A stretch of DNA of 64,000 nt. It comes from Styela clava (Eukaryota). Of the stretch, positions 7,255 to 64,000 are shown piece by piece (the stretch's first letter is position 1; each line of letters starts with the position of its first letter). The notes under the pieces are model-generated. The model did no database searches. It was not told the origin of the DNA and saw nothing but the letters and a program-made list of their open reading frames with translations. Both the position numbers and the translations under genes were made by a program. Location: positions 13,330,001 through 13,394,000 of the forward strand of contig NC_135257.1 in the NCBI RefSeq assembly GCF_964204865.1. Direction: 5' to 3'.

Positions 7255-8093
7255 TTATTTTTGAGCAGATGCTGCAGCTGCCTTTCTTTGGGCTTGGATT
7301 GCGGCTTGCATTTCTTCACGCTTTCTTTTTGCACGGACATGAGAGCCAAGCTATATAAAAATAGATTATAAACTAATTTAGAAAGACACATTCACAAGCT
7401 ACATCAACATTTCCCCAATCAGAGATAAATTTTTCTTTGTTTTTTAGTAATTCATGTGCACATTATACATTAACTACTAGGACTGTACATGGATGGAAGG
7501 GCGACTTGCGCTAACACTAGCCTAAGATCTATTAAAGATTGAACAAGTAAAGACATTAACAGAGTGCTAAAGATTTCGGTATGATAATATATGTTTGCAT
7601 ATCATTCAAGCCTAAATCAGCTGTGGTAGAAATATCAGCCAATCAACATTGAGGTGGGGTTTTTAATGCTTCATTACTGAGATGTATAAGATATGATACA
7701 CAATATTATAGGCATTCGAAACAGTTTTCATACACTCCCAATCAAGTAAATTTAATGCAATTCAGTAGATATTTACCCTCTTTTTACAAAATCTCAGCGC
7801 TCTTTTGTCTTTACCAATTCTCAGCAATTCCATGCATCTTCTTTCGTAAGGAGCGAAACCACAGACTTCTCTCACAAGATCACGTACAAACTTGGTTTTC
7901 TTGGACAGGGTCTAAGGTGCAGAAGTGGCGTCATTAGAAAATAGATCAATAGAGATAAATAGACATAAAAAATAAAAACCCAAAATATAATTAAACTTAC
8001 TCCTCTTCGTCTTGCATGTTTAGGCTTCTGGGTAAACTTGGTAACTTTGTGGCCTTTGGTGAGGCCAAATACCATATCATGAATGACTGCCAT
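7255..8093 (-). CDS. RPL36: 60S ribosomal protein L36 (eL36), 107 aa
   Basis: Exons 8093-8001, 7911-7777 and 7350-7255 give [19 protein letters not shown]...[64 protein letters not shown]...K*. Confidence 0.97.
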
Positions 8094-32760: not shown

Positions 32761-33147
32761 TGCTGACCCATTTGCTGATTTCATTAAATTCCGTGAGACG
32801 GGCTAAATCCCACCACTGGTATTAACCCCCCCCCCCTTTTGGTTTGAGAAAAAAATTTCATGCATGTTGATAGGTATTTGTCTGTATGTCTGTCTGTCTG
32901 TTAGATTCACGCAATATCTCACGAAGGCGTGGTTGAATCTGCTCCAATTTTGCATTTTTGCATGTGCATTCATCATATCTCGGACCAGTAGCCTATTGAT
33001 TTTGGATGAATTTTGCCGTATAATTAGCGAGTTATTAATTAATTAGTGATGAAGAGATCTGGATTTTTACAAAGCGAGAGTTTTCGAGACGCGCTGTATG
33101 TGTGTGTACGTGTCCGATGCCCAAGTTTTGACGCTAGTGAGTCAGAG

Positions 33148-36100: not shown

Positions 36101-36944
36101 ATGAACAGCCAACAATCAATGAGAATTATATGCAAAATTCCTCAGATTGAATTTGTCTTCTAAAATCGGAGGAAGGCAAAACATATAGGTAGTTTCCATT
36201 CACACAAGTCTTTCAAGAAGACTTGCTCGAGACAAACTAAATGAGCATCGTCAGGTGATTGGTAAGGCTGCAAGTTGAATCAGCCCTGCAATCTCCTGCA
36301 TAGAAGATAATATTAATTAGCGGGCTATGAGCTAAATTCCTAAATTTAGACACAAACCTATCTACGAGGCATTATGTACCAGTAAAGTTACCTACGATTA
36401 ACTGAATATGTAATATGTCTAATAAATTCACCTACTAAAACAAGTTCGATAGGTGCAAACTTTGTGTTATGGAATTGTATCACAGCACCTTTAAGAGAAG
36501 TAAAAACAGTTTTGCTGTTTTGTATGACACCCTCTTTAAATGAAATTTCAATGTTTAAGCGCAAACATTAAAATTACTAACTTTGAACTTTGTCATTATC
36601 TGCAAAATGTTTCACACAAATCTTTACGCTATCGCGTTTGTAATATTCTCTAATAAAAAAAAAAACGTCTATGATGTTCAGAATTACTCTTTACAGCTTG
36701 TCTGCCATTCCAGCTTTCCAAATGAGCAAAACTTCTCAGATATAGAGATTATTTTCTTTCGTTACAGGCGCAAAAAGGCAGGTACTACACGTAAAGAAGA
36801 CGCCGAGTAGCAAAAGCAATCGGAAAACCGTCGCGAAAGGCGACGAGAAATATGTGCATTGGAGCGTATCATGAAATACAATCTTTCGCATGCAGTCTTA
36901 TGGAGTGACGTCAGAGTTGCCTATCATGTTGTTTAATGTCATTG
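33148..36944 (+). mobile_element. P/Galileo-like DNA transposon, decayed, copy B (inverted relative to A and C)
   Basis: Same 22-bp TIR, perfect; 7-bp TSD gtcagag; nested hAT at 34465-35630; spliced-looking transposase relic around 33330-34405. Confidence 0.8.
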
Positions 36945-37256
36945 GTCAGAGCGATAGATACACATTACACACCGCTAGATCATATCTCGTGATTAATCTT
37001 TAAGTATAGAGGGTCAACATAGAGATGCCACTCTGTGTGACGTCATAGGTTCCGCATGAGTAACGAGGTATGAACTTCTCAGCTTTCCATTTGCCACCAA
37101 ATATTTAAGCCGAACGTTTGTTTGTTGCGACAAGCTACGCGTATTTCTAAGTTATTTATGGTTAGCACTCTAAAATCAAGTTGCGGTAGATCAAGTTGCG
37201 GTATTTATGTCACAGACTGTGAACTGACACAGTACCTACGGTACCGTAAGTTACTG

Positions 37257-40200
37257 CAATGACATTAAACAACATGATAGGCAACTCTGACGTCACTCCA
37301 TAAGGCTACGAGCGAAAGATTGTATTTCATGATACGATCCAATGCACATATTTCTCGTCGCCTTTCGCGACCGTTTTCCGCTCGCTTTTGATACTCGGCG
37401 TCTTCTTTACGTGTAGTACCTGCCTTTTTGCACCTGTAACGAAAGAAAATAATCCCTATATCTAAAAAGTTTTGCTAGCTTGGAAAGCTGGAATGGCAGA
37501 CAAGCTGTAAAGAGCAATTTTGGACACCATAGACGTTTTTTTTTTATCAGAGAAGATTACAAACGCGATAGCGGAAGGATTTGTGTGGAACATTTTGCAG
37601 ATAATGACAAAGTTCAAAATTAGTAATTTTGATGTTTGCGCTTAAACATTGAAATTTCATTTAAAGAGGGTGTCATACAAAACAGCAAAACTGTTCTTCC
37701 TCCCCCTAACGGTGCAGTGATACAATTCCATAACACAAAGTTTGCACCTATCGAACTTGCTTTAATAGGTGAATTTATGATACCGTATGAACATATTGCT
37801 TCGTAGATAGGTTTGTTTAAATTTAGGAATTTAGCTCATAGCCCACTAATTAATATTATCTTCTATGCAATAGTTTAACAGGGCTGAATTCAACTTGCAG
37901 CCTTACCGATCACCTGAAGATGCTCATTTAGTTTGGCTCGAGTAAGTCTTCTTGAAAGACTTGTGTGGATGGAAACTACCTATATATATTTTGCCTTCCT
38001 CCGATTTAAGAAGACAAATTTATTCTGGGGAATTTTGCATATAATTCTCATTGATTGTTGGCTGTTTATAATTCCTATTAATTGTGAATTTTGATTATAA
38101 CAAAGAGTTAAGAAAAATTTTACGTAATTTACTGGCACCTTTTTCTTGTCAATACTCCAAGCTGAGGTAATAAACAAGACAATACATTTATGTCATCTGG
38201 AAGCAAAAAGTGCACACTAATTAATAGTTTGACACATTGAGATAAAACATCATGACAGAAAATACAAGTTAAAGATATGTATGACCATCACATGGTAAAT
38301 AAAATTAAAAAAAACTAAGAGGGGCTGTGGAGTATGAAAAGTTCAAAACAAAGAAAAGAACAAAAGTTCATAGCTCATGAACTCTCAATTTTGCCTCCAT
38401 TGCTTTGTGAAGGCCAATATATTCCAGTGGCTGAATTGGTTTACATTTATGAGAGCAACGATTTTGTATTTAATACAGTGAGATTTTTTTCAATTTAATT
38501 GAAGTGATATTATTTCCCAAAGCAATGCTTGAATCGTCTGGAATAGATCAGTGGTGTCAAACTCATGGGTTTTTGAGAGCCGCATTGCATTTTGGAAATT
38601 GTAAAAAGGGCCTCAAACAGTTTTTGATAATGTATATTTGAAAGATATTTTTAAGATAGTTTTATTGTGATGACACCAAACAGTTGGATTAAGTTTTATT
38701 ATTTTCTTTAATTTCAAATGCAATTACATATTAATATTTGCATTCCACTGTTATTGCAAGTTACTGTATTTATTATAAAAAATCATAAAATTCTATGTAC
38801 AACGCTCAAAATCATTTTTGAACAAGCTTTGGATAAGAAAAGAATAATACATACACTAAAAATGACTTACGGTAATCTAAATATATTGACCTAACAATGT
38901 GCTTGAAAATTTTGTAAAATGCAGAAATATTGCAACTCCCATTTTCTTCGAAAATGCCACCTTCTTCATGTACTTTGCGTTTAATTTAATCACTCAAGTA
39001 TTCTTTTGCTAGCTTGATGTGTATTCTTAATTGGGCCAAAATGTGAACAAAAAATAAAATAATTTTCCAAAACGACTTTCAGTAAATTGTTGTCTGTGTG
39101 AATAATCAATTTCACTTTGAAAGGTTTAAAAAATCTAATACATTTAGATAAAAAAAAAACTTCCAAAATACTATTACAGTTATTGTTAAGCGTTCGAGGG
39201 CCGCAGTGGAAGTTCTCTGGGGCCGCGAGTTTGACATCCCTGGTCTAGATTGAAGTTGTCTAAAATATATATAACAGTATTTTATCATGAATCACGATTA
39301 TACCCTTTCCTGAATTTCTTCCATAGTACTACCAAAAGTTGATGAACCAAAGAACCATTTTCCAAAGCTGTTTTAAATATGTCTGGCGTGTTTTGTGTCT
39401 TTTTACAAATAAGATCGCTTATGCAATCTTACGCTTTGGATTTTTTAGTTATTTTCTTCAAGCCCTTCAGGATGTGGGGGCCATACACAACTCTACCGGA
39501 GGGTCAAATGTCTTTGCATGCCTCCATAGGTTGTTCTTCTATTGCAAACATTTATGGAGCACTCTAATTATATTTCTTGGAATCACACTGTCACTGATAT
39601 GTCGCCAGACTTCTGATATCTCCCCTTCTGCTATAGTTGTTCTGTGAATAAATAATAGGAAATTGAGATTAGACGAATAGTTGAAAGTTTTACTTTATGT
39701 CGGCTTAATTTCTTGATTGATATACTTACTACTTTTGCTATTGCCTCTTGTGCTGCAAGAGTCTCACAATGCTTAGACAGGTTCGTCGACAACTTTCACA
39801 TCTGAAGAAAGATAGGAGATTTATTCATTTTCGTTAAGAATAAATAAAGCAGTCTATATGATTTAGAATGGGAAAGCTAATAAATCCAATATCTCATGAT
39901 TCATGTAAAAAATGTTTTACTGAATTTGGTATATAAACCAACAAATAAAGGGGTTTAGTCAGAAACTTACAAGCCTTCGTGGCTCCAAGTACTTGAGAGA
40001 TCAGATTATACAATATAAACCGGTATGAGTGTAATGTTAGGTGAACTTCTTAACCTTTTGATTCAATACGCAAATAAAAGTTAATGCGTAATAGTATGTT
40101 AGACCAATGAGTATATATCCTGACTGATTAAAAAATCTAAATGGAGGTGCATGAACTATCTGAAACCATAAGGGGTAAGTAACTATGCAATTCCGGCAGA

Positions 40201-40543
40201 TGGCCAACTACGTACCGTACTACGTACCGTGTTTAATAACTTCGTAGTTGTTGACAAAAGCTGGCTTTCCCACATGTACTTAACAGTGCTATGCCCGTGT
40301 GTGACATACAACAATAGTATTTACCTTACCTTTTTCCGATTTCTTTTTACCTCAACTTTCCAAAATTTCATTAAAATCGACAACAACTGTCAAAGCTGGC
40401 ACGAAAACCATCCGTGCTATGCTCGAAAGCAGCACACATCCGCTCGTTTTCGTCTCGTCAAGTATGTGCATTGGAGCGTGCTATCGGATACGATCTTCGG
40501 CCAAAAATGCCGTAGTTGCGCATCATGTTGTTTAATGTCATTG
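37257..40543 (-). mobile_element. P/Galileo-like DNA transposon, decayed, copy C (more diverged, internal deletion)
   Basis: Same 22-bp TIR; 7-bp TSD gttactg; nested hAT at 38549-39242 lacks ~450 bp present in A and B. Confidence 0.8.
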
Positions 40544-44815: not shown

Positions 44816-46287
44816 AGTTACTGGTGCGTAATGTATTACCATAATCATGCATGGTTCCTGTATCGCTTGGCTTTTCTGGCCATGAGTTCTATCTCGCGGA
44901 AGAAGACTATTTGTTGTTTTCATGAGTTGTTCAATCAAAAAATGAGCAGGGTTTTCGTGATTTAGATTAATCCGCTTCTGGGTCGGCATAGAACTAAGAC
45001 AAACACAAAACAACTGGCGAGAGCGAATTCCTGTATTTGTTAAATTGAACAAGCGAAATGGTTATAAGGTCTGGTGCTCGCGAATCCTAGTGCACAAACG
45101 CATATTGTGATGGTACGTTTTTCCAACGTTATGACATTTCATGACATCGTTAATCTTCTGAAATTGTTTCTGAATTGAATTCATCAACGAATGTCGTAAG
45201 ACACTTATGACATTATAGAAAATTTACGCAAATCTGCTATGATGTTACAGTGGAATTTAACCATTATGTGAAATAAAAAATATTACATCACATTTTGCAC
45301 CTTTGAAATGGCCGTAACGAAATCCTGCGCAAGCCACTTTACCTAAAACGCTGAATGTATTCATTCATATATTTATGTAGTAGTTGAATGCAAGTAATTT
45401 TTTATTTTAATTATTTATAGTCATCAAATTCTGTCAAAGATTGAATGAGGTATCCAAACGTCAAAGCTGTTGTTTCATATGGCCAGTTTAAAATTATCAT
45501 AGAGACACCATAAAAATCTTTACAAATTGTATAGATGCAGATTCAATCTGTATTTGAGAAGGAATTCGTAATTTGAAGCACGCCATGTGCTCAAGTAGAT
45601 TGTGACAAACATAATTTTCTATTACATAGAATGTCTAAATGCAAAAAGGTTCAATAACTATCCGCAGTCGTGACAGTCAGCCACGCTTGGCGGGATAAAA
45701 TGAGGGATTTCTTGAATTAAAATAAAAGAGCGAGAATCTAGGTGAAATACTGGATCTCATAGGACTCAGAGAAATTTTGAAAAAAAAAAATAAATACACT
45801 AGCCATGTATCTTTCATGCTTTTTGAACCTTTATCTAGTACTTTCATAATCCATAGAGCACAAAAGTACTTAGATTATTATTTTAATTGATAGATTCCAA
45901 ATCCCATTATGATAAACTATTCGGGCGAAAGAAAGTGAAAACCCTCTGTGACTGAAATGAAGTTTCCAGATAATTTAAACTATGGCGGCCAAGGAATTTT
46001 ATTTTAACGGGAAAAGCGCAAACGAAATTGCATTAAAATCAATTTATCGATTAGTATTGTGGCCCTTAAAACTGTTCTGTAGTCGCCTTGTGTACCAGGG
46101 CCCCCGATTGGGAACAAGTTGTGTAGGCTATATACCGTATTTATTTTATAAGTCGAGAGTATACTTATTAAACTATTTATTTATGCATTTGTGTTTAGGT
46201 GCTGACTTACTTTACTTTGGTTTCAGCGTATTTGGTTTATTGTGTGCGCGTTGCGTTATTAGGAATTTTAAAATTTAACTTACAAGA

Positions 46288-46355
46288 GGGGTTGTGGTTT
46301 GTCGTAGGATTAATTCGACCCATTGGCGTACCCCTTCCCTGGGATAAATCTGAGA
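46288..46355 (+). mobile_element. SINE 3' tail fragment
   Basis: gtggtttgtcgtaggattaa...ccccttccctgggataaatctg resembles the 3' end of the SINE at 54765-55078; similar tails at ~28610-28680 and ~28790-28850. Confidence 0.4.
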
Positions 46356-46860
46356 AAAATCGACCCTAACCGAGGTCGTCCATGTGTGACAGGGTAAACA
46401 CTCACGTGACATCGTTAAAAGATCAACAAAACGGTGGGGATTTTAAATCAGAATTCGGCGATTGGGAATCTCGTCCTCTTCCTGGTCTCTGTAATCGTTT
46501 TTGTCTTGCGCGTTGTGAAATCACGTGCAGCAATCAGCAATCCAAACTGGTAATCAGGCATATCTTTTTCTATTAATTATGTCAAGGTTTCATTTCATAG
46601 GACGGTGGGAGCGTAATTCGAAGCGTAATGTTTTGATGAGGAAAACGCATTATTTAATGTAAATATTCCAGTACCGCAACTTTTAAATGAAATGCTAAAG
46701 TAAAGATTTCGTCAAACTAATCTGTAAGCTGGTACGGGAATACAGGAATATAAACAACTTGGAATGTCGTTTGGAGGAGTCAATATCAGAATATTCTTAT
46801 ATTAATTTAAAGATCTCTAGGTCATTTTTCAAATGCTGAATTTAAGGTAGGGTTGTAGGC

Positions 46861-47064
46861 GGTTCCATTACATTTGAACCCACGTACATTTGAACCCATG
46901 ACAATTGCACCTGTATGCTATTGCACCTATGGAGTTTTTTTTTGTTTCACGGATAGTTAAACCCATACTAACCCTAACCCATGGGTTTTATCACCCGAAT
47001 ATAGATTGAACCCGTGGATATACGCTAGGGTTCAAATGTACATGGGTTCAAATGTACGGTCACC
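46861..47064. mobile_element. Short MITE with 9-bp TSD, same family as 40577-40738
   Basis: GGTTCCATTACATTTGAACCC...GGGTTCAAATGTACGGTCACC; perfect TSD gttgtaggc. Confidence 0.85.
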
Positions 47065-47475
47065 GTTGTAGGCTATTTCGGCTTTGTTAAGTTGTTCTTG
47101 ATGATTTTGCATGTTGCATAAAAATCATAGATCGTATTTAGCTTTGAAATAAAAACTTTGTATGCCTGTAGACTATGCTGGAGTTTCATTAATAACATTC
47201 AGACATTCCTTCTGTATCGAAAGATTGATGATGTGTATTTTGCGAGTTTTGTGATTGAGGTATTCAGTTATTGTTCTGTATATTGGACTTTCATTGCCGC
47301 ATGGAACATTTATTATTTTAACTTATTTGAATCTGTAAATTGCAATTAACCAGATAATATTAATTTTTTGCTGTGAAATAAAAAAAAAATTGAGTTTTTT
47401 CACTCGAATTGCCTATTACTACTGTACTATTTTGTAGAATCAGACTTACTGTTATAGTATTATAATTACGAACCA

Positions 47476-49689
47476 ATGTCCGGAAAATCATCATTAGAAT
47501 CAAGTGATATCGTTGGTCATTTGGATCCATACATAGAACATTTACGGAAAAAATATCTTGAAAGAAATGATGACACTGATGTAAAGGTTTTGGAAACAAC
47601 CGATCAGAACACAACTGACAATGAACCATTTTCCCATCTACCTCCCAATCCATCTCTGACAGAAAGTGAGCGCAAACACTACAATCGTGCAATGAGAGAA
47701 TTAGGAAAAGCGTTGAAACTGAGTGAAAATAATTTGAGAAGTTCAATTGCCGAGTTTGAGAAAAGTGTTGTTCCTACTGACGAAGACAAACGAACTTCTA
47801 CAGGCTCTGGAGATCGTCAATGTGCTGCTACTATTACTGATGAAACAACAAATCAAGATACAGCTGCGGATAGCGAAAGTGATGCTTTAACATGGCCAAC
47901 TACTTTGCCGTCTACAATACCTATAGCATCGAAAAAAATCCCATCTTCTTCATCAGAATGCTGGGAAACTATAATTCCATCATCGTGGAATGATCAAACA
48001 ACATTATCTGGATTATCGCGTCAGTTCAATTCGTGTGCCGAACCGGATAAAATTTCTGCTGTTGATGTAAAAGCAATATACTCTGAGCTGATGGGCATTT
48101 ATCAAAAACTTCTTACTGAGAAAAGTAGAATAGCTGAGCAACAAATGATCGAAAATAGACTGGAACAAAATTTTGAAAGCCAAGAGAAGGAACTTGCAAT
48201 TAGAGAAGCTTTTTTGCTTGAAAAGGAAAAAGAGTTATTGGAAAGAGAACGTTCACTTTCTCTCGGACTACAGAATATGAAAAGAACAAAAGAGATTGCC
48301 GCTAAATTAGAAGGTGTAGAACTTGAGGTCCAAGAAAGAATTGACCTTTTACAGCAAGGTCATCAATTAGAGGTTGAAAGACTGAATGCAGCATTGCTTG
48401 AAAAGTCTTGTGAAGTCAAACGTGTGAGAACTTCTTTCAACATGATGAAGGACCAAAATGACGAATTTAGAAATAAACTGTCAGCTCTGGGTTTTGAAAA
48501 TCAAAAACTGAAAAATCTGAACTCGAAATTAACTAAACGGCTGGAAAATCTTCAGAGAAGACAAGATTTTAGAGCATGCAAACCTACTCATATTGTTTCC
48601 GGGAATGCAAAGTTTGAGAAAGAAAATGTTGCAAAGCAGTTTCCATCAACAATGAAGAGAATTTCGGAAAAAGCTTCTCCTAAGCAGTTTGTAGGAATGC
48701 TTGAAGCATTGTCAGTAACATTTGATTGGTTATCAGAAGTCCATTTGAAGAGATGTGACACTAATGACATGGCCATTTCAATCAGTGTAGAATATGCTGT
48801 TGATAAATGTCTTAAAATCCTCCCACTACTTGTGGATGTGGTGAAAATCCTACCTAGTTATTCAACACAGAAAAAACATCATTTATCAATACTTTCATTT
48901 GTCTATCTCTGTTTGTGTCGCATCGATGAATCACAAAATGCATTGTTGTCTTCAACAACACGTAGACTAGGTGATGAGCTATACAAACCTTCTCATGGAG
49001 TTTTGAATTCTCGAAAAGCTTCGTCAGCCTCTCTTATACTGGCAACAACTGCTTCATCTACTGCAGTTGACAGTATACAGAGTCTTAGTTTTGGAGAAAA
49101 AGCGCAAGAATTTGCTTCTGATAATTCTGTATATTTTCGTAGCAATGTTCCTGAAATTAGGCTTCTTAGTTGCTTTATTGTTTTAAAGACCTTACATCAA
49201 GTTGATGTATTAGCTCATGTTTTTGGTCAAATGAAGAAGGATTTGAAAAATGAAAATAACAGAAAAATATTTTTGGATTACAATGCAACTCATATTGTTC
49301 TGCCTTATGTTACATACAGAGCAAACAAAGCACTGATAGGAGATGCAATCGATGTCATTCTACAAATGTCAATGGAGTCTGCATTGTTGCCCGCATTCCT
49401 TGAACAGTGCAGCACAGAACAATGGTTCCGCACATTTTCTTCTACACTTAGGAGCGCCATTGGCTCTCTTGATAAAAGTTCATCACCAAACACAGTTATA
49501 ATCGAAAAATTAAGCATTATTCTTCAAAAATTATCGAAAGTAAAGACCAATCGGAAATATTTTGATGCTTTCTCGATGGGAAGGAATTTGCAAGAATGCT
49601 ATAGAACTTGTGATCCTAAAAATACATTTCTTGTTCTTAACTTGAGATCTATTTTATTCAATCTCAACTTACTCAAAGACAATTCCTAA
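47476..49689 (+). CDS. CCDC138: Coiled-coil domain-containing protein 138-like, single coding exon (737 aa)
   Basis: Long ORF with IYSELMGIYQKL, a central coiled coil, STTRRLGDELYK, RLLSCFIVLKTLHQVDVLAHVF and C-terminal IEKLSIILQKLSKVKTNRKYFD...FLVLNLRSILFNL, recalled as CCDC138 motifs. Confidence 0.85.
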   Translation: MSGKSSLESSDIVGHLDPYIEHLRKKYLERNDDTDVKVLETTDQNTTDNEPFSHLPPNPSLTESERKHYNRAMRELGKALKLSENNLRSSIAEFEKSVVPTDEDKRTSTGSGDRQCAATITDETTNQDTAADSESDALTWPTTLPSTIPIASKKIPSSSSECWETIIPSSWNDQTTLSGLSRQFNSCAEPDKISAVDVKAIYSELMGIYQKLLTEKSRIAEQQMIENRLEQNFESQEKELAIREAFLLEKEKELLERERSLSLGLQNMKRTKEIAAKLEGVELEVQERIDLLQQGHQLEVERLNAALLEKSCEVKRVRTSFNMMKDQNDEFRNKLSALGFENQKLKNLNSKLTKRLENLQRRQDFRACKPTHIVSGNAKFEKENVAKQFPSTMKRISEKASPKQFVGMLEALSVTFDWLSEVHLKRCDTNDMAISISVEYAVDKCLKILPLLVDVVKILPSYSTQKKHHLSILSFVYLCLCRIDESQNALLSSTTRRLGDELYKPSHGVLNSRKASSASLILATTASSTAVDSIQSLSFGEKAQEFASDNSVYFRSNVPEIRLLSCFIVLKTLHQVDVLAHVFGQMKKDLKNENNRKIFLDYNATHIVLPYVTYRANKALIGDAIDVILQMSMESALLPAFLEQCSTEQWFRTFSSTLRSAIGSLDKSSSPNTVIIEKLSIILQKLSKVKTNRKYFDAFSMGRNLQECYRTCDPKNTFLVLNLRSILFNLNLLKDNS

Positions 49690-50272
49690 TTGTAAAATTT
49701 ATTTATCTCTAATTTCAATAGCAACAAATTGATGTTACAAGCAGTAATTTAGAGAACCTAGACATTTTGGCGATTGATAAAATTAAAAATTTATTTTATT
49801 ATTAAATATAACTAATTTTCTGATTTTAACGAACATTACTGACTTGAATATTCTTAGGAATTAGCTATAATGAGTTCGCTGTATACAAATATTTGAAATC
49901 AAGTTTAGAATGTCTTTATTATACCATTTATTATTAACGTTTTCTGTTGTAGGCTATTCAATAAACTCCATTTTTCTATGTAATTTTTTATAAATAAAGC
50001 TATTCTTCAGAACAAAAAACATTGGAAGTGTTTAAAATTCTATTAATATTACGAAGATTTTTTCTATATGTTATAAATTACAAATGTTAAGTTACAAATA
50101 TTTTTGTCTATACACTTAGCAATGCTTAGTATATATTTTATATATCTAGTATGTACTTATTGTCATCAGGGTAGACTAGTAGATATGTGTAGATCTTATA
50201 CTGTCATTATTAATACTGTAATATTATATTTTCTTCAGTATAATTCGATTCTGCTTTTAATCAAGTATTTAA

Positions 50273-53200
50273 ATGGCATCAAATGTTGCAGCTGAAACCT
50301 CAAATCAATCTAGTGCTCTCCTTGAGCCAGATTCGAAAGAGACTCACAGTGCCATGAGCGGATTACTAGACACTGATGATTTGATCAGTGGCGTAAGTGA
50401 CCTCACAGAACGAGATATTTCTAGAGCTGATAATCAGACCAATAAACATGGTAATTGAAGTATAATAATGGATTATTCTCTATTTTAAGTTGCTTCTAAT
50501 ATAAATTTTCTTGCTATTAACTGGTGCTAGGGCATCCTTGGTGATTCTGGTAGTAACCTAATAGAATGACAGAAATAGATGAAGTAGACATTCTGAAGTG
50601 GGCAATATAGAAGGCTATATTATATACTTGTTGCAATGACTGTGTATATTTATCCCTTGGTATTTGATAAATTTTATGTCTGCATTGCCTTATCTACTTG
50701 TTATCAGTCTGATTATAAATTTTATAAAACAATAATTGTTCTATATATTTAATATTTATTTTTCATTAGGACGTGTTTCACGACACGAGTTTGAAAGAAA
50801 ACAAATGGTTCATGATCTTCAATTACTTCGAATTGAATTGTCTCAGAAAAATTTAGTTATCGATAACATGAAAGCAGATCATATGAGCAAGGTAGAAGAA
50901 CTTGAAGAAAGACTGAATGACACACTGCATAAAAGACAGGTAAAGAACACCATAGCCATAGTATCTATAAAACCATTATTATTACTGTACTTCCCAGAAA
51001 AAAAGATCCAACAAGAAGTTGCATGATGGTTCCAATAATTTAATAAAATTCCTTCTAGATTGTAGAACCTGGTATACCCCCTTGGGACTCTTGGTATCTA
51101 ATTTTTATGTTTATCGCAGATTCTGCAAGCAAGACTGGAAAGTGCATTAGCAATTCAGCAAGATGAAGCTCGAAATAGGCAACAACAAACCCAGAAAGAA
51201 CTAAAAATTATATTGGAAAGGTATTCACATTTAAATACAATGATAGGTTGTTGAATTACTCTATACTCGGACTATTTGGCAGTTGAATGACTCGTTACTC
51301 AAACAATTCGGTAGTCTACCAAAAAATTCCAGTCAAAAATTCTTCGGTACTCAAACAGAAATTCGGTGCTCGAACACCTAAGCATGCAGCCGAGTGAGAT
51401 AAAGTCATTTGGCCACGCATTCCGGCGACCCACATTATGTTTGATTTTCGTTATGTACCTATTTAAATAATTATTGTTGTTTAGGTACACGTTTTGTCAA
51501 TATTTTGGGTATTTCGGAATGCGTAAGAACGAATTAAAATAATCACCATTGTTACGGCACGGCAGTAAAAGTTTCAGTACTTGAACAAACAGCAGCATAA
51601 TGCCATGTAGTGAAAAAGCTAAAACGGCTAGTAATACAAAATCAGTTAATTCAGATAATGCAACATGAAATCAATCTAATAATTTATGGAAAAAATCCTG
51701 TAACATTTTAAGAAAGTGGAATCTTGTTATACACTTCAAGCATAATTATGAGTTTACATTCTAAAAATCTGTTAAAATATCATTTGAATTTACAGGCAAC
51801 AAGAACTTGAAAATGTGAATAAAAGACTTCAAGCAAAAGCATCTGACATTCAGTATCAGCTCCAGAGAGATGTTCAGATATCGGAGGAAGAATATATTGA
51901 GTTAAAATCGATGCCTCCCAATAAGTTGTCTCTCAAAGAATTCTTTTCCATGAGGTACAGAGTGTAGAGAAATTAAAAACACCATCAGTCAATAGCTTGT
52001 AAGAATGACTTACATTTTCCTAATCAATGACTAACTGTAGAATCAGTAGCCTATGCGACTTACATTGAAATCCATTATCTGTTCATACAAAATAATAAAA
52101 TCAAATCCAACCACAACAGCAATTTATTTGGTACCAATAAGATCTCAGCTGGGCAGTAAGCACAAGCTCTTTCAAAAAGATGTTGAAGTGGTCTGACGTC
52201 ACAGGACTGTCACGTGGTGGTGTAATATTCACAAAATAGCAAAATTTTGGCTGAAGTATCAGGCTCAGAGAAATTTGAAATAAAAATTAGCTTTTTATTG
52301 GCTCAAGCCATATCTAGCTACATTTAATCAAAATTTTGGGTGTATCAGGCTCGGAGGAGTTTAAAAAAAATGAATCTTTCCAATGGCTTGAGCTATATTT
52401 AAAACTGAAAGTTTGAAAATAATTGGTCTAATAAATTTGGAGAATAACCATTTTCTTCCAACAATAAATGTCACCCCCCAAACAGCAACAATTCAGCAGA
52501 ACATTCCTTGTGTGCAATTCATGTCCAGTAGTACACTGCGATGTCTATAACTTCCATGATTGATTTTGATAGGGAGAAAATAGGTCTACACTGAAATTTA
52601 GTCATTGATCACTATTGAAATATTGAACTTTAGTTATTGATATCATCATTCATCACATTTTTGTCTAAACCTCTTCTTTCTAAAAACTCTAAACCTGTAT
52701 TTGATTGCTTTCAGAATTTATGAAGTGATGTCACCAATTCGAATTGAATGCATCAATTTACGTGAACAACGGGATAAATTGTCAGTTGAAATTGCACAAC
52801 TAAATCACAGGTTGAATAGCACAGAGCAAAATTTAATGCAGGTTTGTAGATTTAAGATACAGTGGTACCTCCGTAATCTAACGACTCTATACTCGAACAA
52901 TGGGTAGTCCACCAAAAAAACGCATCTCAGCTGCCTCTTGACCATTAAACAAAATAGCAATGCTTAAATATAATATGTTCGAAAAGGCCAAAACGAAGTA
53001 GTAATCTGTGCAATGCAATCTGTAGATTACCGGTGTGGCAATCTTCATGACTAATGCGAAAGCGGAACTGCAACAAGGTGCGAAGTATTTGATATCATTG
53101 CACACAAAAACAAATCCCATAGAGCCCACAAAAATTTGCTCAAACATACAGTAACTGATACAAGATTTTTGATATTTTTATCCTTATAATGTTTGATCTT

Positions 53201-55758
53201 TATTATGTACACTTTTAAATAATTGTTGTTGTTTAGTTACATGATGTTTTTTTTTTTTTGGAATGCGTGAGAACGAATTAAAATAATTACCATTGTTTCT
53301 CATGGCAAAAAAAGTTTTGGTACTCCTGCTATTTGGTAGTCTAACACCAATCCTGAGTTATGAACGAATTATGTTCGTCTTCCGAGATCCACTGTATTAT
53401 GGTAGATATTTTTTCTAACCAGTGTTCAGTGACTCAGTTGCAGTTCGTAAAAAGTTTGTCAAAGTCCTTTGAAAATTACTTTATATTTATTATGGTATTT
53501 ATAATTTATATATATATATATATATATTATAAATCTTTGATGCTATTAACAATTTTAAATAGTTACATTTGAAAAATCTTCATTACAGCATGACTTAAAA
53601 ATATATTCTTTTTCGAGTTCTGAAATCTTTAAAATAAAGTAAACCAAAGTCAAATTGCTGAATGTATTTCTATGTATTTTTTATTTAACATGACCTAATT
53701 TAAAATAAGTCGATATTCTCTTTTCGAAGCAGCTATTATTTTGGGCCATCCATCCATGACGTCCATACCAAACAATGTTTCGATGCTGTGTTGTAAACAT
53801 ATTATATACCAGTTTCGTAATGTGCAATAAAATTAGCTGAGTAATGACGGTTTACATTCAAATTGTTGTATTTTTTATTATTTATTATTTATTTTTTCAT
53901 ATATTTAATGACCATCATGGAAATTTTGATTCACCGTTTGTAAGATTGTAAGTTATTTCGTTTCTAGGAATGTAGAGCTCGTAATCATGCAGAAACTCAA
54001 CTCAATGTTGTATCAGCAGAATCAAAGCAATCGCGAGATCTCCTTCATACATATAACTCAAAAGCTCAGAGATTTGATTCTGTCAAGCAAGAAAGAGACC
54101 AGTAAGTCATTTTTTACCAACCCAGTTTTGAAGTTGTTTTTACTGCTATAGCAGGGGTCACCAACACGTTGCCCGCGGGCACCAAGTTGCCCGCGAAGAC
54201 CATATGAGTAGCCCGCAGGTCTGTTCCAAACTAAGCTTAATAACGCCTCTTATAAGTAAGCTACATCAATTAAATTTTGTCCTGCTATTTTAGTATAAAT
54301 CACACTTTTATGGGGACTGGAAATGACACTATATTAATTATTGTAACCATCAACCTTATTTTTGACGGGTCAATTAACACTCTTCCGAATATGACATCAC
54401 ACTGATATCACTTTTCACGAACCCGCGCTTTTTCTTGTCCGTTGGTTTGTGGAGCAGCAATTTTAAAATGGCAGAAAAACGATGAAAAACCCATCATTTT
54501 CACAATGAATGGGAAGTGGTTATATTTTTACCACCTTGAAAACAGCCTGCGTCTGTCTCTTTAGTGGGGCGATTGTAGCGGCGACGAAGCGAAGAGATAT
54601 TTTACATTTTGTCACACAATCTATCGCGCTAACTATCCACTCAGTCACTGGTCAGCGCAGTACAGGCAAAAAAAGTTCGCAATTCAAATCATACAGCAAT
54701 CCTATTTTATGAGACCATTGTCTGGTTCCGCCTATCTTTGTGAATCAACATTTTTGACATGAACTCAGGATAGGAGGAGATTTACATATTTATCCCGTGG
54801 GAGAAGATAGCCGATAAGACAGCTTAACCATATGACGAACCTTGGCCTCTCGTCCAGTTACCATTCCATGTCGGGTATGAGATTAGTTAGTTATTTGTTT
54901 CCGAAAGCATGGACTTGATGGCGAAGGAAGCCGTAACTGACCAGCGGTTACGTGAACCACCCTACGGGGGCGAGGAGTCCAGCAATCCTCTCGTACATAA
55001 CTATCCACGCATGGGTTTCTAACCTGCTAACCTAACGCTTAACACAATGGGCCACAGCGCCGCGACTCACTCCACCGGGAACAAACACAGAACACGCCTC
55101 ACTGATGAAAATCTGCGAGACTCGCTCATAGTCACAGTGTCAAGTTACACGTCGGAGTATAATACTCTGCAACATTTGATAGTACAACTGTTGAGTCCAT
55201 TTTATCTTAAACTTGTGCAGAGTGTTGAAAATCAATTTGAAAACACTCAGTTTTGAAATGCAAGTGTCATTGATAGAAATTTATTTGCTACGTTGTGATA
55301 ATCGTTTGATTTCCTGAAGAATCCTAAAGTTTATTAGTGGGTCTACTTGACTAAATACCAGTAATTATATTAATAATTGGAGCTCATTCGAACAACTGAC
55401 TTTTTTAGAAGTGTACATTGAACTGGTAGCCCGCAGCTTAATCTGTACCGAGAAAGTAGCCCTCGGCCTCGAATAGGTTGGTGACCCCTGTGCTACAGGA
55501 TATTGAGACCTAGTGCTAATGCTCTTTAATTTGTATTGATTTGTGCTGGTGACCAGAAACGTTAAAACCTGCTTGTTGGCAAGTACCAAAATAATTCTTG
55601 TCTGTATTTTTTTTTTGGTAAGGTTGGAAAAAGATTTATTAAATGTACAAAAACAACATTCCTTTCAACAAGCAGAATTAATATCTTCAAGGAAAGAGAT
55701 AGATGAATATAGGAAAGAGATTGACACCAAACAACAAACAGAAAAGTTACTTGAGCAG
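50273..55758 (+). CDS. PIBF1: Progesterone-induced blocking factor 1 / CEP90, 5' part (continues past the window)
   Basis: Exons 50273-50450, 50770-50939, 51120-51220, 51796-51954, 52715-52841, 53968-54101 and 55623-55758 splice in frame. ERKQMVHDLQLLRIELSQKNLVIDNMKADHMSKVEELEERLNDTLHKRQILQARLE matches the PIBF1 N-terminus; no stop reached. Confidence 0.9.
54152..55490 (+). mobile_element. Internally deleted Buster-type hAT transposon in PIBF1 intron
   Basis: TIRs CAGGGGTCACCAAC / GTTGGTGACCCCTG; TSD tgctatag/tgctacag. Relics of the transposase N-terminus (HFHNEWE...TTLKTACVCL) and dimerisation domain (GSAYLCESTF...NKHRTRLTDENLRDSL). Confidence 0.88.
54765..55078 (-). mobile_element. tRNA-derived SINE nested in the hAT element
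   Basis: Minus strand begins gcggcgctgTGGCCCATTGTGttaagcg...GGTTAGAAACCC (A-box- and B-box-like), ~310 bp, ends gggataaatatgtaaatctcctcctatcc; it interrupts the transposase relic. Confidence 0.7.
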
Positions 55759-56814
55759 GTGATTTGTATGTAAATTTGACTTGAATGTCGTGTGTTTTTG
55801 CAGAGTCTTATATTTTCGGCGAGTTTTCCATAATGAAGATAATTTTGGTCAATGGCCCAGCCATGAAGGGGGTTTACGTATGCGAGAGGTGTTATTTAGG
55901 GCGTAAACACCTTGTTGGTGGTTATTCTCCCTAAATCACAAATTTCAGACAAATTTGTGCCCCACAACGATGATAATTTCTTTATTTTTGTACTTGCAAA
56001 GAATTATGAATCCGGTGAGAGTTATTATACATTCATCGGCGGCGAGATGTTATAGCAAATAAAGGAGTGAATCCACGCCGAAAAAAATACCAAAAATAAA
56101 ACCGTAAACAATATAAGTTTTGTTGTGGGAGGCCCGCGACAGATTAAAAAAAACTTTTATAGGTATTATGTTTGGTCGGCGTAGGGAACCATATCGTCAC
56201 TAAAATCAAAACACAGTCAATTGTGAGCGGGATTTACCTTTTTATTCATTAGTCATTACTTCAAATTGCTGTTGAAAATTTTTGTGTTAACATTATACAA
56301 GGCTGGAAACACGACTTTTTCCCGATTTTTGATGATATTCAAGATAATTAATTAAACTGTATTCAATCAATTTTTATTGTACTAAAATAAATTTTACTTC
56401 ATCAGATTTTATAGCAGACTTGAGATTTAGCTGATTTTTCTAACGGTTTTATGATTTTATCTTGAAAATAATCTGAGTAGCAGCATTGCGATAGAGCGGA
56501 GTCAGTGTTGCAAGTACAGATCAGATTTGTTGAATTCGAAAAATGGCAAAAATACTTATTAAAACTAGATATAATCAGGCAGTTTACCATGCATTTTTAT
56601 CTCCCCGGATTGCCGTGGTATTTTAGAGCAGTGATGCTTTTATTTTGTCAACGCAACCGCATGTTAAATTGAAGACAATGAAATTAATACAGCAAGACAT
56701 TTTAAACATGCCCGTATCGGTCCTGGATTGATTACTTTGCACAACAGGAAAATCTTGATTATCCGTCGAAAAAGTCATTCCGCTGGGATTTTGAGGCGAT
56801 TAATATTTATTTTT

Positions 56815-59800
56815 ATGTACTGATATACTTTATATGTATTTACCTGTACTCTACAGGATTTTATTACAGATCTTGAGATTTTTCTAACGACGATAACGAA
56901 TTAGCATGATCTCGAAAATAAGTATCAAAACTATATATAATTAGGCATGTTTATCTCATATTTTTATGTCAACAGATTGACGTGGTATTTTAGAGTAGTA
57001 ATGTTCTTATTTTGAAGCAAAAAGACGCAAACGCGAGTTAAGTTGGCCACAATTATATTGATATAGAAATGAATTTTAGATTCTCGTAGCTGTCATGAAT
57101 TGAATATGTTACGCGACAAAAAAGTCGATATGCGCTGAAATAGTCGGCTATGTTACCGAACGCGTAATTGCGACGACTGTTTCAGAAGGAAATGGGAATT
57201 TCCGATTTTGAAAATTGAGTGAAATAAACCTTATATTTGTCAAGGTTAGCATTATATTTTAAGGCTGCTGAAACTTAGTTATGAAAACTACAGAATTACA
57301 TTTTTTCATGACCCTGAAAACTTCTAGGGTTGGTTGGTGAGTTATCCAAATCTACAGCAATTCATGATATTTTATAATTCTGTTATGAATAGTTTCAACG
57401 TGAAAGTCTATACTCTACAGATATTTTAGCAATAATAGTTAAATCGGAAGTGTGCAATTGACATTCTTACTTATCCATGTCATAGAACAGACTGTCTGTT
57501 CATGTTTTGCATTCTGTAGGCTACATATATTTGTGCACTTGATGATGTTATATTTTTTAAAGGAGGCAATGTGAAAACATATTTTTTTTGTTCATACTGT
57601 CTGGCTATCATGCATTGTTCCTTGGAGGCATAAGAGAGCAATAGATTCACATTTCCAAGAATATGTTTATTCATTTGTGCTTCATCCAATCCTTTTTCTG
57701 TACAAATATGTAGAATTCTATCATATTCTAATTTTTGATGTTTTATCATTGTAGTGCTATTTACACACACTCATACAATTACAAATAGAGGCTTCACTAT
57801 ATATATATATATATATACTCTATCTAATGTACTGTGATATCCACCCCCAAAATATCAAACCACTATATTTTTGTTTAAATCTATTAACAATGAACTAAAT
57901 TTTTATCTTATCTTATCAAATTGTGAAGGATAAAAATGAATTCCTCTAGTTTCAAATTGCAAACAATAGCGTTGAAACATTTGCATCATGTCTTCATTGT
58001 ATAATTTATAACTTGAATATAGCACAACATAATAACAATGAAACTGAAAGAGACATGGCATAAGACCTAATATTATATATATAAAAGTACTCCAGTAGTT
58101 TTCTTACTGTTTTTATTTTTTTCTAGAATATAATAGTTGTACTAAATAGTATACTGCAGTATTATAATTCTTTTTAAATAGATATTTGTTCATCGTTATA
58201 CCTCAGTATTGAATGATCTTGTCACTTCAAACTTTCCATCAACTCTGGATTTTCAACCGTTTTGGAAGGATAAAGTTGTACAATGATTCCTTTCTCAATG
58301 AGTTTGTTCCACATTAAACTAATTTGATGAATAGTTGGATTCAGGGTTGGAAATGCCACCCAGACAACCCATTCATCTGAAAAGATATTGATCCGATATC
58401 ACTACTGATATAAATCGCTCTAGGAATCTACACATATTCAATTGGTTTGTGTCACTTTTTTGAAATTTTGAAAGATTCGTTGTCTTATGTATAGCCTGGA
58501 GAGGAAAAAATAGTTTAGTCCGGTATTGCAGTTTTATAGTTGGTTGCTTTTCCCCCAATTTCCTTATGTGCAATGTGGTGCTACCTCCACTGGTGAGCAG
58601 GCATTCCTTGTGAATGAACGTCCTTGAATGTTTTTAAGTGGGTGATTTTAATTACTTACCGTACTCTTGAGTGAGTTTAATCCCTTATATTGTGAGTTCT
58701 ACCAATGCTACTGAGAGTAAATTGTCATTGAAACTAAATGAAAAGCGGAATAAAATACCTGAAAGACTGCAGAATGCATTGACCAAAAAATTCTTTTCGT
58801 CACATAGAGACAGAATATCACCATTGAATAAGGCATCATCTGAATATTAAAATGTTTTAACTTTTGGATTGTCAAATTTATTTTACCATTGCCAATTTAA
58901 TCTGTAAATTCAATTATACATTACCTATTTTTTTCGCTTTATCATTTGTTCCTCCATCTGGTGTTAGAGTGTGAGAAGCCAAAAAAGCTTGCTCTGTATC
59001 AAATAATTGAATTTTTCATTTCATTTTACCTATATAGGTATATTTAAAAATAATACCTTCGCTCTTTTTCCCATAATAAACGCCGTCTCTTCGTTTGGTC
59101 TTATGACTTGTAAAGGTTTGGGGAGGAGAACTGAAATAAAGTAAAATGTACAATTACATATCTTCTGGTTTTGAATGCAGCTTTGATTTGGGTTAAACAC
59201 TGAATAGTCTGATCTTTCAATTCAAATGTAACTGAATTCACTTGTATACTTTAGTTTGAATATTGCAGTGTCAAATCATTGCTTCGTTTTTTTTTCAACT
59301 TTTTTCAGTTTATTTGAAATAAATTATAAACATACTTTTCATGTAAATCAGTAATCACAATTCGCATTCCTTCATTTGTATTAGAGATATTCTGAAATTT
59401 TGCACCTATAACATCTTTTTTCATGATCTCATCGTTGGTGTGTAGCACCATATACCAGTCATTCTTTACCTGCGCACAATAATAAGAAAGCCGAGTTCAG
59501 TGAAGATGTTGAAATCTCCAGATATATTATTGTGAGATGAATGTATTTGAAGTCCTAATGTTGTTTTAATCAAATTTTTGAAAAAAAGTGTAAGCGGATA
59601 ATGAATGTTTCATACATATTAAAAATTGATTGAAGGTTAAGGCTTTACTATTTACCTAATTATATACATACCTTATCCCAGTCGATATCTTCATTGTTCT
59701 CTGGAATTTTACATTTTTTTGCCTGGTTAATCTCGATGCCTATAGCAAGCATCAAAAGTGAAATCCACAATATGTTCCTCAAGGCCAACATTTCATTTTA

Positions 59801-62800
59801 AAGCTGCTAAATCTTAGTTTTAAAAACCACAAAATTATGTACTTTCCTAACCCTGAAAACTTTTAAAGTTTATTTGTGAGTTATCCAAATTTACAGCAAT
59901 TTGTAAGATTTCAGAATTAGATTATGAATAATTGCATCGAAAAGTCAATAGATACTGTAGCAATAATATTTGAATCAGAAGAGTGCAATTGACATCCTCA
60001 CTTATCCAAGTCATAGAACAGACTGTCTGTTACAAGTCTTGCATTCTGTACATATATTGGTGTTGTGAATACGTTAAAATTCCTGAAGAAGGCAGTGGGA
60101 AACGAGTATCGTATTTTTTGTTTTGTTTATACTGTCTGGCTATGTGGAACCTGCATTGTTCCTTGTAAGAGGAGGCAAAAGAGATCAATAGATTCACATT
60201 TTCAAGAAAATGTTTATTCATTTGTCATTCATCCGATCCTTTTTCTGTACAAATTCATAGGATTCTCTCATATATCCTAATTTTTGATGTTTTATCATTG
60301 TAGTGCTATTTACACACATTTATACATTTACAAATATAAACTTTAATGCATATATTATATATATATATATATGTATACTATATCTAATGTACTGTGATTT
60401 CCACCCCAAAAATATCAAACAACAATTCAGTATCAGTAAGTCTGCTATTTTTGAAAATATTATTCTTCTGTATGCGCAGTACCATAATATTGGGTTTGAA
60501 CTGCATATTCTTTTTCTTTGTCCACTACCTACTTGTATCTTACCCACAAGGAAACTTTAAGGACATGATTGAATGACAGTGGCAACTTTTTTCAACTATC
60601 GGTGACCAAAATATTTGACCTAACGTGTGCCGGTTTTGGACAATATGACAACTTATTGTAGACATGAAATTTGAAAAATACGTAATCTATTGGAATGGCA
60701 GAATAAATATGGCATAATGCATTGTTTTACAAAATACTTTGACATTTTTATAAAAGGCGTTAGTTAATTTGAATAATTCACAAACAATATTAAATCTTAA
60801 GTTCTAACATCGACATCTGGTTTTTGGTTTACATCCATTTATCAGGTCAACTCATAGGGTGCGAAAAATTATGAAATGTAAAAGAAACATGATGCGTTTG
60901 TTAAAAACTGAAGGTTTTTGCAATTAGAAAAGGCCAGTAATTTTCGTGTGCTAACTAGATCATAAAGCTTAAAATGCAAAAAAGATGCAATAACGAGTCT
61001 TCGCAGTGACATATTCATCACTGTCTTCTTGTTCTGAATATGCCGACTCCATTTACGGTGCTTGGTGCCTACTACTTTTATGTGTGCTTTGCAATCAAAC
61101 GCAAGTATAACCTAACAAGAAAGATTCAGACGCAAGAGAAACTGCTTTTCAATGAATATTAAATTAGATATCCAAATTACAAAAATCGCCACATGGTGCG
61201 AAGATGCATAAACTGAATTGCAGTAACAGATCCCCCAGATTCAGTTATTCGAATTGTCCGTTCTTAGTCAAGTCACTGCAATAAGATAAAAAAAAAAGGG
61301 AGTGGAATATTTATGACCATCTCATGTTGGCTGTGCAACATAGCCTTTTACTCAACTATATAGCATTAGCATATTAATATGAGGCAGACAGAAGCAGAAA
61401 GACAAAAAGACTTCGATGAGAGAGGAGGCAGAAAGGGAACAATAGATTCACATTTCCATGAACATGTTAATACATTTAGGGGCTTCATCCATCTTTTTTT
61501 GTACAAACATTTAAATTCTATCATATCTAGTGTTTTGAACATGTGTTTTTGATATACTGATATACTTCATATGTGTTTAATTGTACTTTACAGGATTTTA
61601 TTACAGATCTTGAGATTTTTCAAACACTGATAACGAATTCCCAAGGTCGCAAAAATGAGTATCAAAACTAAATACAATCAGGCATGTTCATCTCATATTT
61701 TTATGTCAATAAATTGACGTGGTATTTTAGAGTAGTAATGTTCTTATTTTGACGCAAAAAACGCAACCACGAGTTATGTTGGGCACAATTATATTGATAT
61801 AGAAATGAATTTTAGATTTTCGTAGCTGTCATGAATTGAATATTTTATTCGACAAAAAAGTCGATATGCGCTAAAATAGTCGACTCTTTTATTAACGAGC
61901 GTGTAATCGCGGCGACTGTTTCAGAAGGGTTAGCAATATATTTTAAGGCTGCTGAATCTTATTTATGAAAACTACAGAATTACATCTTTTTATAACCCTG
62001 GAAACTTTTAGGGTTTGTTGGTAATAACAATTATCTAAATCTACAGCAATTCCCGATATTTTATATTTCTGTTATGAATAGTTTCAACGGAAAGTCTACA
62101 CTCTACAGATATTTTAGCAATAATAGTTAAATCGGAAGTGTGCAATTGACATCCTTATTTATTCAAGTGATAGAACAGACTGTCCGTTCACATTTTGCAT
62201 TCTGTAGGCCTATATATATTTGTGCACTTGTTGATGTTATATTTTCTAAAGAAGGCAATGTGAATACATAATTTTTTTGTTTATACTGTCTGGCTATGTG
62301 GAACATGCATTGTTCCTTGGAAGAGGAGGCAAAATAGATCAATAGATTCACATTTTCAAGAAAATAGTTATTCATTTGTCCTTCATCCAGTCCTTTTACT
62401 GTGCAAATATATAAAATTCTATCATATCCCAATTTTTGATGTTTTATCATTGTAGTGCTATTTACACACACTTTTACAATTACAAATATAGGCTTCACTA
62501 TATATATATACCGGTACTCTATCTAATGTACTGTGATATCCACCCCCAAAATATCAAACAACTATATTTTTGTTTAAATCTATTAACAATGAACTAAATT
62601 TTTATCTTATCTTATCAAATTGTGAAGGATAAAAATGAATTCCTCTAGTTTCAAATTGCAAACAATAGCGTTGAAACATTTGCATCATGTCTTCATTGTA
62701 TAATTTATAACTTGAATATAGCACAACATAATAACAATGAAACTGAAAGAGACATGGCATAAGACCTAATATTATATATATAAAAGTACTCCAGTAGTTT

Positions 62801-64000
62801 TCTTACTGTTTTTATTTTTTTCTAGAATATAATAGTTGTACTAAATAGTATACTGCAGTATTATAATTCTTTTTAAATAGATATTTGTTCATCGTTATAC
62901 CTCAGTATTGAATGATCTTGTCACTTCAAACTTTCCATCAACTCTGGATTTTCAACCGTTTTGGAAGGATAAAGTTGTACAATGATTCCTTTCTCAATGA
63001 GTTTGTTCCACATTAAACTAATTTGATGAATAGTTGGATTCAGGGTTGGAAATGCCACCCAGACAACCCATTCATCTGAAAAGATATTGATCCGATATCA
63101 ATACTGATATAAATCGCTCTAGGAATCTACACATATTCAATTGGTTTGTGTCACTTTTTTGAAATTTTGAAAGATTCGTTGTCTTATGTATAGCCTGGAG
63201 AGGAAAAAATAGTTTAGTCCGGTATTGCAGTTTTATAGTTGGTTGCTTTTCCCCCAATTTCCTTATGTGCAATGTGGTGCTACCTCCACTGGTGAGCAGG
63301 CATTCCTTGTGAATGAACGTCCTTGAATGTTTTTAAGTGGGTGATTTTAATTACTTACCGTACTCTTGAGTGAGTTTAATCCCTTATATTGTGAGTTCTA
63401 CCAATGCTACTGAGAGTAAATTGTCATTGAAACTAAATGAAAAGCGGAATAAAATACCTGAAAGACTGCAGAATGCATTGACCAAAAAATTCTTTTCGTC
63501 ACATAGAGCCAGAATATCACCATTGAATAAGGCATCATCTGAATATTAAAATGTTTTAACTTTTTGATTGTCAATGTATTTTACCATTGCCAATTTAATC
63601 TGTAAATTTAATTATACATTACCTATTTTTTTCGCTTTATCATTTGTTCCTCCATCTGGTGTTAGAGTGTGAGAAGCCAAAGCAGCTGGTTCTGTATCAA
63701 AATATTGAATTTTTTATTTCATTTTACCTATATAGGTATATTTAAAAATAATACCTTCACTCATTTCCCCATAATAAACGCCGTCTCTTCGTTTGGTCGT
63801 ATGACTTGTAAAGGTTTGGGGAGGAGAACTGAAATAAAGTAAAATGTACAATTACATATCTTCTGGTTTTGAATGCAGCTTTGTTTGGGTTGGACACTGA
63901 ATAGTCTGATCTTTCAATTCAAATGTAACTAAATTCACTTGTATACTTTAGTTTAAATATTGCAGTGTTAAATCATTGCTTCGTTTTTTTTTCAACTCTT
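56815..64000. repeat. ~4.7-kb tandem duplication with internal partial repeats, inside PIBF1 intron
   Basis: 56815-59300 recurs at 61553-64000 (ORF 58373-58573 recurs at 63072-63272, offset 4699); a third partial copy of ~57260-57860 lies at ~59790-60420. Confidence 0.92.
58202..59739 (-). pseudogene. Decayed multi-exon gene of unknown family, antisense within PIBF1 intron
   Basis: About seven AG...GT-bounded, more GC-rich blocks with protein-like frames and scattered stops (e.g. 59739-59672, 59130-59057, 58839-58759, 58376-58202); partly duplicated at ~62890-63830. Confidence 0.45.

Follow-up and report, generated by a model that had tools for sequence, protein, structure and literature searches.

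In ascidians, the closest described systems to the locus considered here are the spliced leader (SL) operons of Ciona. About one fifth of Ciona genes are reported to lie in operons, and single-exon genes are the 5′-most in 60% of 1,310 of them (PMC2760879). According to PMC1488885, polyadenylation takes place in Ciona operons at the G of the acceptor AG or, in some cases, 2–6 nt upstream of it, and 16 of 18 operons have no AATAAA within 40 nt. [quoted passage not shown] It is to be noted that the tunicate leader is reported on monocistronic genes as well (PMC7986045, PMC1488885), so the question whether two neighbouring genes form an operon turns on the gap between them.

Here, we describe a pair of genes in Styela clava, CCDC138 and PIBF1/CEP90, on a 64-kb stretch of the genome (hereafter, the window). 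A sequence-only reading had proposed that they are either a dicistronic operon or two genes that share a first exon. We consider that they probably constitute a two-gene operon of the Ciona type, with one presumed promoter upstream of CCDC138. The two genes are same-strand neighbours, the upstream one has a single exon, the downstream one receives the SL, and AATAAA is absent within 40 nt of the likely cistron boundary at 50238. Coordinates of the features are collected in Table 1.

Table 1. Features of the CCDC138-PIBF1 locus, in positions of the window.
Feature	Position	Strand	Basis or remark
Likely 5′ outron of the unit	46470-47437	+	X2 contig 46470-46871; discarded on SL trans-splicing to CCDC138
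MITE-like multicopy element	46860-47068 (approx.)	.	Has terminal inverted repeats and a duplicated TTGTAGG flank; lies within the outron
Trans-splice acceptor of CCDC138 (TTTTGTAG)	47430-47437	+	X2 contig: AG at 47436, preceded by 14 loose letters of leader
CCDC138 CDS	47476-49689	+	Intronless 737-aa ORF; one genome match; 99% identity to a Styela clava record
AT-rich gap, read as CCDC138 3′ UTR up to the PIBF1 acceptor	49690-50238	+	549 nt; contigs of X7, X1 and X2
Possible proximal poly(A) signal AATAAA	49993-50019	+	CA and an A-run follow at 15 nt
Trans-splice acceptor of PIBF1 (TTTTCTTCAG), likely cistron boundary	50229-50238	+	X2 contig: AG at 50237, preceded by 19 loose letters of leader
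PIBF1/CEP90 exons 1-7	50239-55758	+	ATG 50273; four GT..AG joints in RNA contigs; tblastn

The intronless CCDC138 frame proposed from the sequence was confirmed: it runs without interruption, and it contains both CCDC138 domains of Pfam, CCDC138_cc and CCDC138_C (PF21035, E = 4.9e-81, and PF21037). The matching Styela clava record is named CCDC138-like, and in a quick tree of 58 rows, each of at least 380 aa, the CCDC138 of Ciona savignyi groups with the Styela protein; the 14 CCDC138-like proteins that were checked include none from Clavelina or Phallusia. As for PIBF1, tblastn of a 782-aa record (P0009) gave 15 pieces, seven inside the window and eight beyond it, and an intron of about 22 kb separates exons 1-7 from the eight later exons outside. 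The translation of exons 1-5 equals the record exactly, and four of the GT..AG introns are spliced out in RNA contigs. Its identity to named PIBF1 proteins is 47–53% for Phallusia, Clavelina and Ciona and about 40% for vertebrates, and a Pfam search of the protein matched no family. The PIBF1 ATG lies 583 bp from the end of CCDC138, just where it had been placed before. RefSeq numbers of the two Styela proteins are consecutive, which merely repeats their adjacency, and the Ciona savignyi accessions are uninformative as to position.

The RNA data are assembled contigs from five RNA-like runs of three studies (X1, X2, X3, X6 and X7, out of nine such runs), together with one of four DNA-like runs, X10, which covers all 30 bins. 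None of the runs is catalogued as RNA; they were judged to be so from skipped PIBF1 introns, from uncovered unique flanks and from the presence of the leader. Such contigs show no strand, start or expression level, and rare variants are dropped from them.

What stands at the 5′ ends of the two mRNAs? Acceptors had been predicted just upstream of each ATG, TTTTGTAG ending at 47437 and TTCTTCAG ending at 50238, each a possible site for an SL or for an upstream exon, and in X2 both carry a leader directly before the exon. The 14-letter piece on CCDC138 is the 3′ part of the 19-letter piece on PIBF1, and it is non-genomic at this place: the window holds no match to the leader better than three mismatches, and none beyond chance. 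The leader was seen in one of the five RNA-like runs, the contigs of the other four starting inside exons. Its sequence corresponds to the 3′-terminal 21 letters of the SL consensus "Chordata 1" in Table 1 of PMC3795323, and the genome contains this 21-letter form 386 times, against 0 for a control. When followed by GTA it occurs 115 times, and most of the 100 places listed belong to a tandem array on another contig (C8) with a period of 1,634 bp, whose unit has a TATA-like box, the leader, a GTAAGT donor, a hairpin and, as judged by eye, an Sm-like AU-rich word; an Rfam search of the unit gave no match. The leader is thus absent from the locus, and multicopy genes bearing it with a donor and an Sm-like site are found elsewhere. 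From the leader on both acceptors, the match to a published SL and the SL RNA-like array, it follows, as far as one run can tell, that CCDC138 and PIBF1 both receive the SL by trans-splicing at the acceptors that had been predicted. This also provides sequence evidence for a spliced leader of Styela and for its gene array. Apart from the array, an LTR retrotransposon bears the leader inside its LTRs.

The gap itself is as AT-rich as had been claimed, at a GC content of 0.225; of 1240 windows of its size (583 bp) sampled over the 64 kb, none is as low. The accompanying claim that it is nearly CpG-free did not hold: it has six CpG, a number not exceeded in 18% of the sampled windows, and an observed/expected ratio of 0.82, the window as a whole having 0.79. 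Two AATAAA hexamers had been pointed out, at 49960 and 49993; both are in place, whereas their number is not significant (1.03 expected by chance, P = 0.27), and the one at 49960 is allele-specific, being altered by A49964G in all five RNA-like runs. The gap also has ATTAAA at 49782 and 49801, and a second TTCTTCAG, which the sequence-only reading had passed over, ends inside it at 50010. The upstream patch, which had been called the only promoter-like, CpG-rich stretch, is modest; its 17 CpG are reached by 5.9% of 310-bp windows, so it is not the sole such stretch in the window. Ciona, moreover, is reported to be without CpG islands (PMC4691747), which weakens any CpG-based promoter argument. 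With an ordinary ratio in the gap and a modest patch upstream, CpG was rejected as promoter evidence, and so was G+T richness, which does not separate the upstream patch (maximum 0.70) from the gap (0.67).

RNA covers the gap in five of five RNA-like runs. A contig of X7 (49019-50017) links the CCDC138 coding sequence with the gap. A contig of X1, from study P1, extends over 49888-50233 and ends 5 nt before the acceptor, and the contigs of this run appear to tile from the coding sequence to 50233, one 129-nt piece being supplied by depth arithmetic. A contig of X2, from study P2, covers 49887-50238 and stops at the G of the acceptor, followed by six unmatched letters. Gap contigs thus end at 50238 and 50233 in two of the five runs; contigs in the others end at 50134 (X3), 50118 (X6) and 50017 (X7), none of them at the acceptor. 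No unspliced contig crosses 50238/50239 in any of the five runs, as judged from all records of X2 and X7 and from depth tables and arithmetic for X1, X3 and X6, and no contig spans both ORFs. RNA that reaches the acceptor, with none crossing it unspliced, fits the Ciona operons that have no intercistronic DNA. Together with the same leader on both acceptors, this supports the operon branch of the earlier proposal. Of all seven loose contig ends in the region, two carry the leader, three continue into PIBF1 exon 2, one carries an adapter-like string, and the last, at 50134, is of none of these kinds. The string, an extension of X3 at 50244 that resembles a sequencing adapter, was set aside.

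If the pair is an operon, one primary RNA, starting at about 46470, would take in the CCDC138 ORF and the AT-rich gap and continue into PIBF1. Trans-splicing of the leader at 47438 would strip the outron and form the 5′ end of the CCDC138 mRNA, and the same reaction at 50239 would form that of the PIBF1 mRNA. The CCDC138 RNA would likely reach the AG at 50238, with poly(A) presumably added there and no intercistronic DNA left, although shorter ends near 49830 or 50014 are possible. As to the outron, 46096-46369 has zero cover in four of four runs, so that the X2 contig beginning at 46470 gives a weak hint of a transcription start nearby. Cover is also 0 over 47090-47428 in three of three RNA runs as against 18.7 in the DNA-like X10, even though 46470-46871 is covered, and a lack of contigs proves nothing in such a place. 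Within the outron lies the MITE-like inverted-repeat element, not mentioned in the sequence-only reading, which is 95–98% identical over about 200 bp at all 39 other scored places, out of 1911 first-look candidates.

How else could the two mRNAs be made? The second branch of the earlier proposal, a cis-spliced first exon ending at 46549 and joined either to 47438 for CCDC138 or to 50239 for PIBF1, with CCDC138 inside the first intron of PIBF1, is very improbable. The donor on which it relied, CTG/GTAATC at 46550, does exist, and RNA cover begins at about 46470. Nevertheless, the X2 contig is colinear with the genome through this donor and unspliced, no joint of 46549 to 47438 or 50239 is present among 15 of the 20 joints or the seven loose ends, and no genuine 5′ extension other than the spliced leader is seen at the two acceptors. 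Since contigs drop rare variants, the shared exon is disfavoured only as the main form; Ciona genes with both spliced forms are reported to have weak paired donors (PMC11155486), by which a minor form is possible.

A more serious rival, which we still regard as unlikely, supposes two monocistronic SL trans-spliced genes, PIBF1 being driven by a promoter of its own, located either within the gap or in the 3′ region of CCDC138, and the gap being partly 3′ UTR and partly outron. Against the operon, 549 nt is a typical length for a Ciona outron, and TATA-like words occur in the gap at 49989, 50072, 50130 and 50139; the AATAAA at 49993 is canonical and the X7 contig ends 19 nt after it, and in Ciona, where the two genes are unlinked, each is represented by SL transcript models. 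TATA-like words are, however, to be expected in DNA of 78% A+T, and the precursor of an outron should cross 50238/50239, which no contig does in the five runs, though holes of this kind prove little. That two contigs stop at, or 5 nt before, the acceptor, and that those of X1 appear to extend there from the coding sequence save for the one 129-nt piece, also speaks against an independent start. It is doubtful, too, that most CCDC138 mRNA is cleaved around 50014 or 49830, leaving 224–410 nt as an intercistronic outron, to which an internal promoter may add. Main CCDC138 contigs do end at 49802-49829 in X1, X2 and X3 and at 50017 in X7, the ATTAAA words at 49782 and 49801 and the AATAAA at 49993 are present, and depth declines along the gap, from 25.5 to 4.2 in X2 and from 66.8 to 16 in X3. 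The breaks around 49830-49887, however, fall where allelic differences are clustered and an insertion or duplication is present, and they may be assembly effects, as such differences can break contigs. The X7 end sits within a genomic A-run, where a real 3′ end and internal priming look alike. The two-gene operon without a spacer is, in our view, the probable reading.

Is this arrangement found in other tunicates? In the Ciona gene models, CCDC138 is KY21.Chr14.99, which adjoins SLC37A3, while PIBF1, KY21.Chr4.1137, has GBA2 and RASA1 as its neighbours, and both genes come with SL transcript models (PMC10951915); adjacency, which had been suggested as a check, thus fails in Ciona, with the two genes on chromosomes 14 and 4. 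In the Botryllus rows available, g4435 is far in number from g10616 and g27879, a weak indication that assumes gene numbering to be positional (PMC7949349), and a search of the supplements of PMC11273300 gave no match. Given the separate chromosomes of Ciona, the pairing appears to be lineage-restricted; it is likely unnecessary for the joint work of the two proteins, and may be due to chance. By a rough estimate, which assumes 100–200 satellite genes, 0.07–0.27 satellite-satellite junctions are expected per Ciona-sized operon set. The idea that the arrangement couples two satellite components found no support either: the genes are unlinked in Ciona, and Ciona operon genes are described as neither tightly coordinated nor mutually exclusive (PMC1488885). 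In Ciona, mRNA profiles of CCDC138 and PIBF1 over eight stages correlate with r = 0.89, and since RASA1 correlates too (0.85), this is best read as generic maternal decay.

With respect to its origin, a young operon of the Styela lineage can be imagined, in which an already intronless copy of CCDC138 inserted into the PIBF1 outron and was retained because two centriolar-satellite components became co-transcribed, the choice of poly(A) site between about 50014 and 50238 setting the ratio of the mRNAs. We give this scenario little credence. The insertion would have to be one without a retroposition signature: no leader relic and no clear poly(A) relic were seen at CCDC138, and a genome search found no intron-bearing parent copy. 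If true, it would offer a testable model for the predominance of single-exon genes at the 5′ position of ascidian operons. As a fifth or so of Ciona genes are in operons, one further operon is ordinary in itself. Among the papers listed, the literature search found no operon paper for the genus Styela, most subscription papers lying outside it, and the papers naming both CCDC138 and PIBF1 concern, by title, human protein-complex, satellite and leukaemia data. The pair is likely an operon of an already known ascidian type in a genus for which no operon paper was found. Its value is modest; besides the evidence on the leader, it shows that operon membership in ascidians turns over between lineages, and a satellite gene pair could help to find out if operons of this kind couple expression at all and by what means the upstream 3′ end is formed.

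Compared with the Ciona SL operons as described in PMC1488885 and PMC2760879, the Styela pair is alike in the common strand, in the single-exon 5′ gene, in one leader serving both genes, in having no AATAAA within 40 nt, and probably in upstream RNA that extends to the acceptor AG or a few nucleotides short of it. It differs in the leader, which in Ciona is 16 nt long and of another sequence, and in possible additional proximal 3′ ends that would leave a spacer of 224–410 nt; for Styela, addition of poly(A) at the AG is presumed, and so is a dicistronic precursor. Operons of Caenorhabditis share with it the separation of mRNAs by leader trans-splicing, and are described as an SL2-type with spacers of about 100 nt and a rare SL1-type without (PMC1488885, PMC7986045). 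Proximal polyadenylation of CCDC138 would make the Styela pair resemble the spacer type of Caenorhabditis. Unlike in the SL2-type, no second specialised leader is seen in Styela, the same one being used on both genes. For vertebrates, whose CCDC138 and PIBF1/CEP90 are orthologous to the Styela proteins, direct binding between the two is not stated in the relevant parts of PMC5488662 and PMC6627244; both are located at basal bodies in Xenopus (PMC5488662), and in human cells CCDC138 has been confirmed as a resident of satellites (PMC6627244).

The acceptor of PIBF1 is not the only place upstream of this gene where TTCTTCAG occurs, as a second copy is followed closely by an A-run at 50014, and five ATGs lie between this copy and the PIBF1 start. 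No leader was seen at this second TTCTTCAG. When contigs assembled from the RNA-like runs X2 and X3 are compared with the window, allelic variation is found at 46650, 49773-49887 and 50134: an identical 6-letter insertion appears at two sites, 46650 in X2 and 49861 in X3, while X3 contigs also have a short back-jump (49828-49773) and, at 50134, an unexplained loose end of 26 letters.

IFT46 is a second ciliary gene without introns in the window. The next recognised gene after it, the RPL36-like exon, is on the opposite strand, which leaves IFT46, with its single exon, without an obvious partner for an operon. As for duplications, further copies of the inverted one, 87-93% alike, extend up to 40543, and the direct one falls within the long PIBF1 intron.

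Features in the window and elsewhere in the Styela clava genome (G000; C1 and C8 are contigs)
Feature	Location	Strand	Remarks
IFT46, intronless	window 4330-5418	+	Pfam E 2.5e-96
RPL36-like exon	window 8001-8093	-	match weaker than curated cut-off
Large inverted duplication	window 28992-40543	inverted	arms 28992-32770 vs 33138-36949, 97%
Second TTCTTCAG	window 50003-50010		same 8-mer as PIBF1 acceptor
Direct duplication	window 56810-63997	direct	4.7-kb period; 57244-59300 vs 61928-63997, 95%
LTR retrotransposon (L019)	G000:C1:14846500-14855500		SL exon within each LTR
SL RNA gene array (L028)	G000:C8, about 4.13-4.60 Mb and on		1,634-bp period

Outside the SL RNA gene array, a second class of leader copies is dispersed, with the leader followed by GTAGATTTTCC and with differing flanks; one such copy has a telomeric repeat 7 kb away. 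The LTR retrotransposon, which carries the leader exon in both of its LTRs, may be a greater surprise than the probable CCDC138-PIBF1 operon. Among the 100 listed of the 386 leader copies in the genome, many pair up on the same strand at a spacing of 5.0-6.5 kb. In some copies the leader precedes a T-rich AG, and in others the join follows directly after it, as if element RNA, once trans-spliced, had undergone renewed reverse transcription. The LTRs of the element on C1 are 99% alike and lie 6,485 bp apart, and it codes for a Gag zinc knuckle and then for protease, RT, RNase H and integrase, an order of domains which we take to be Ty3/Gypsy-like.
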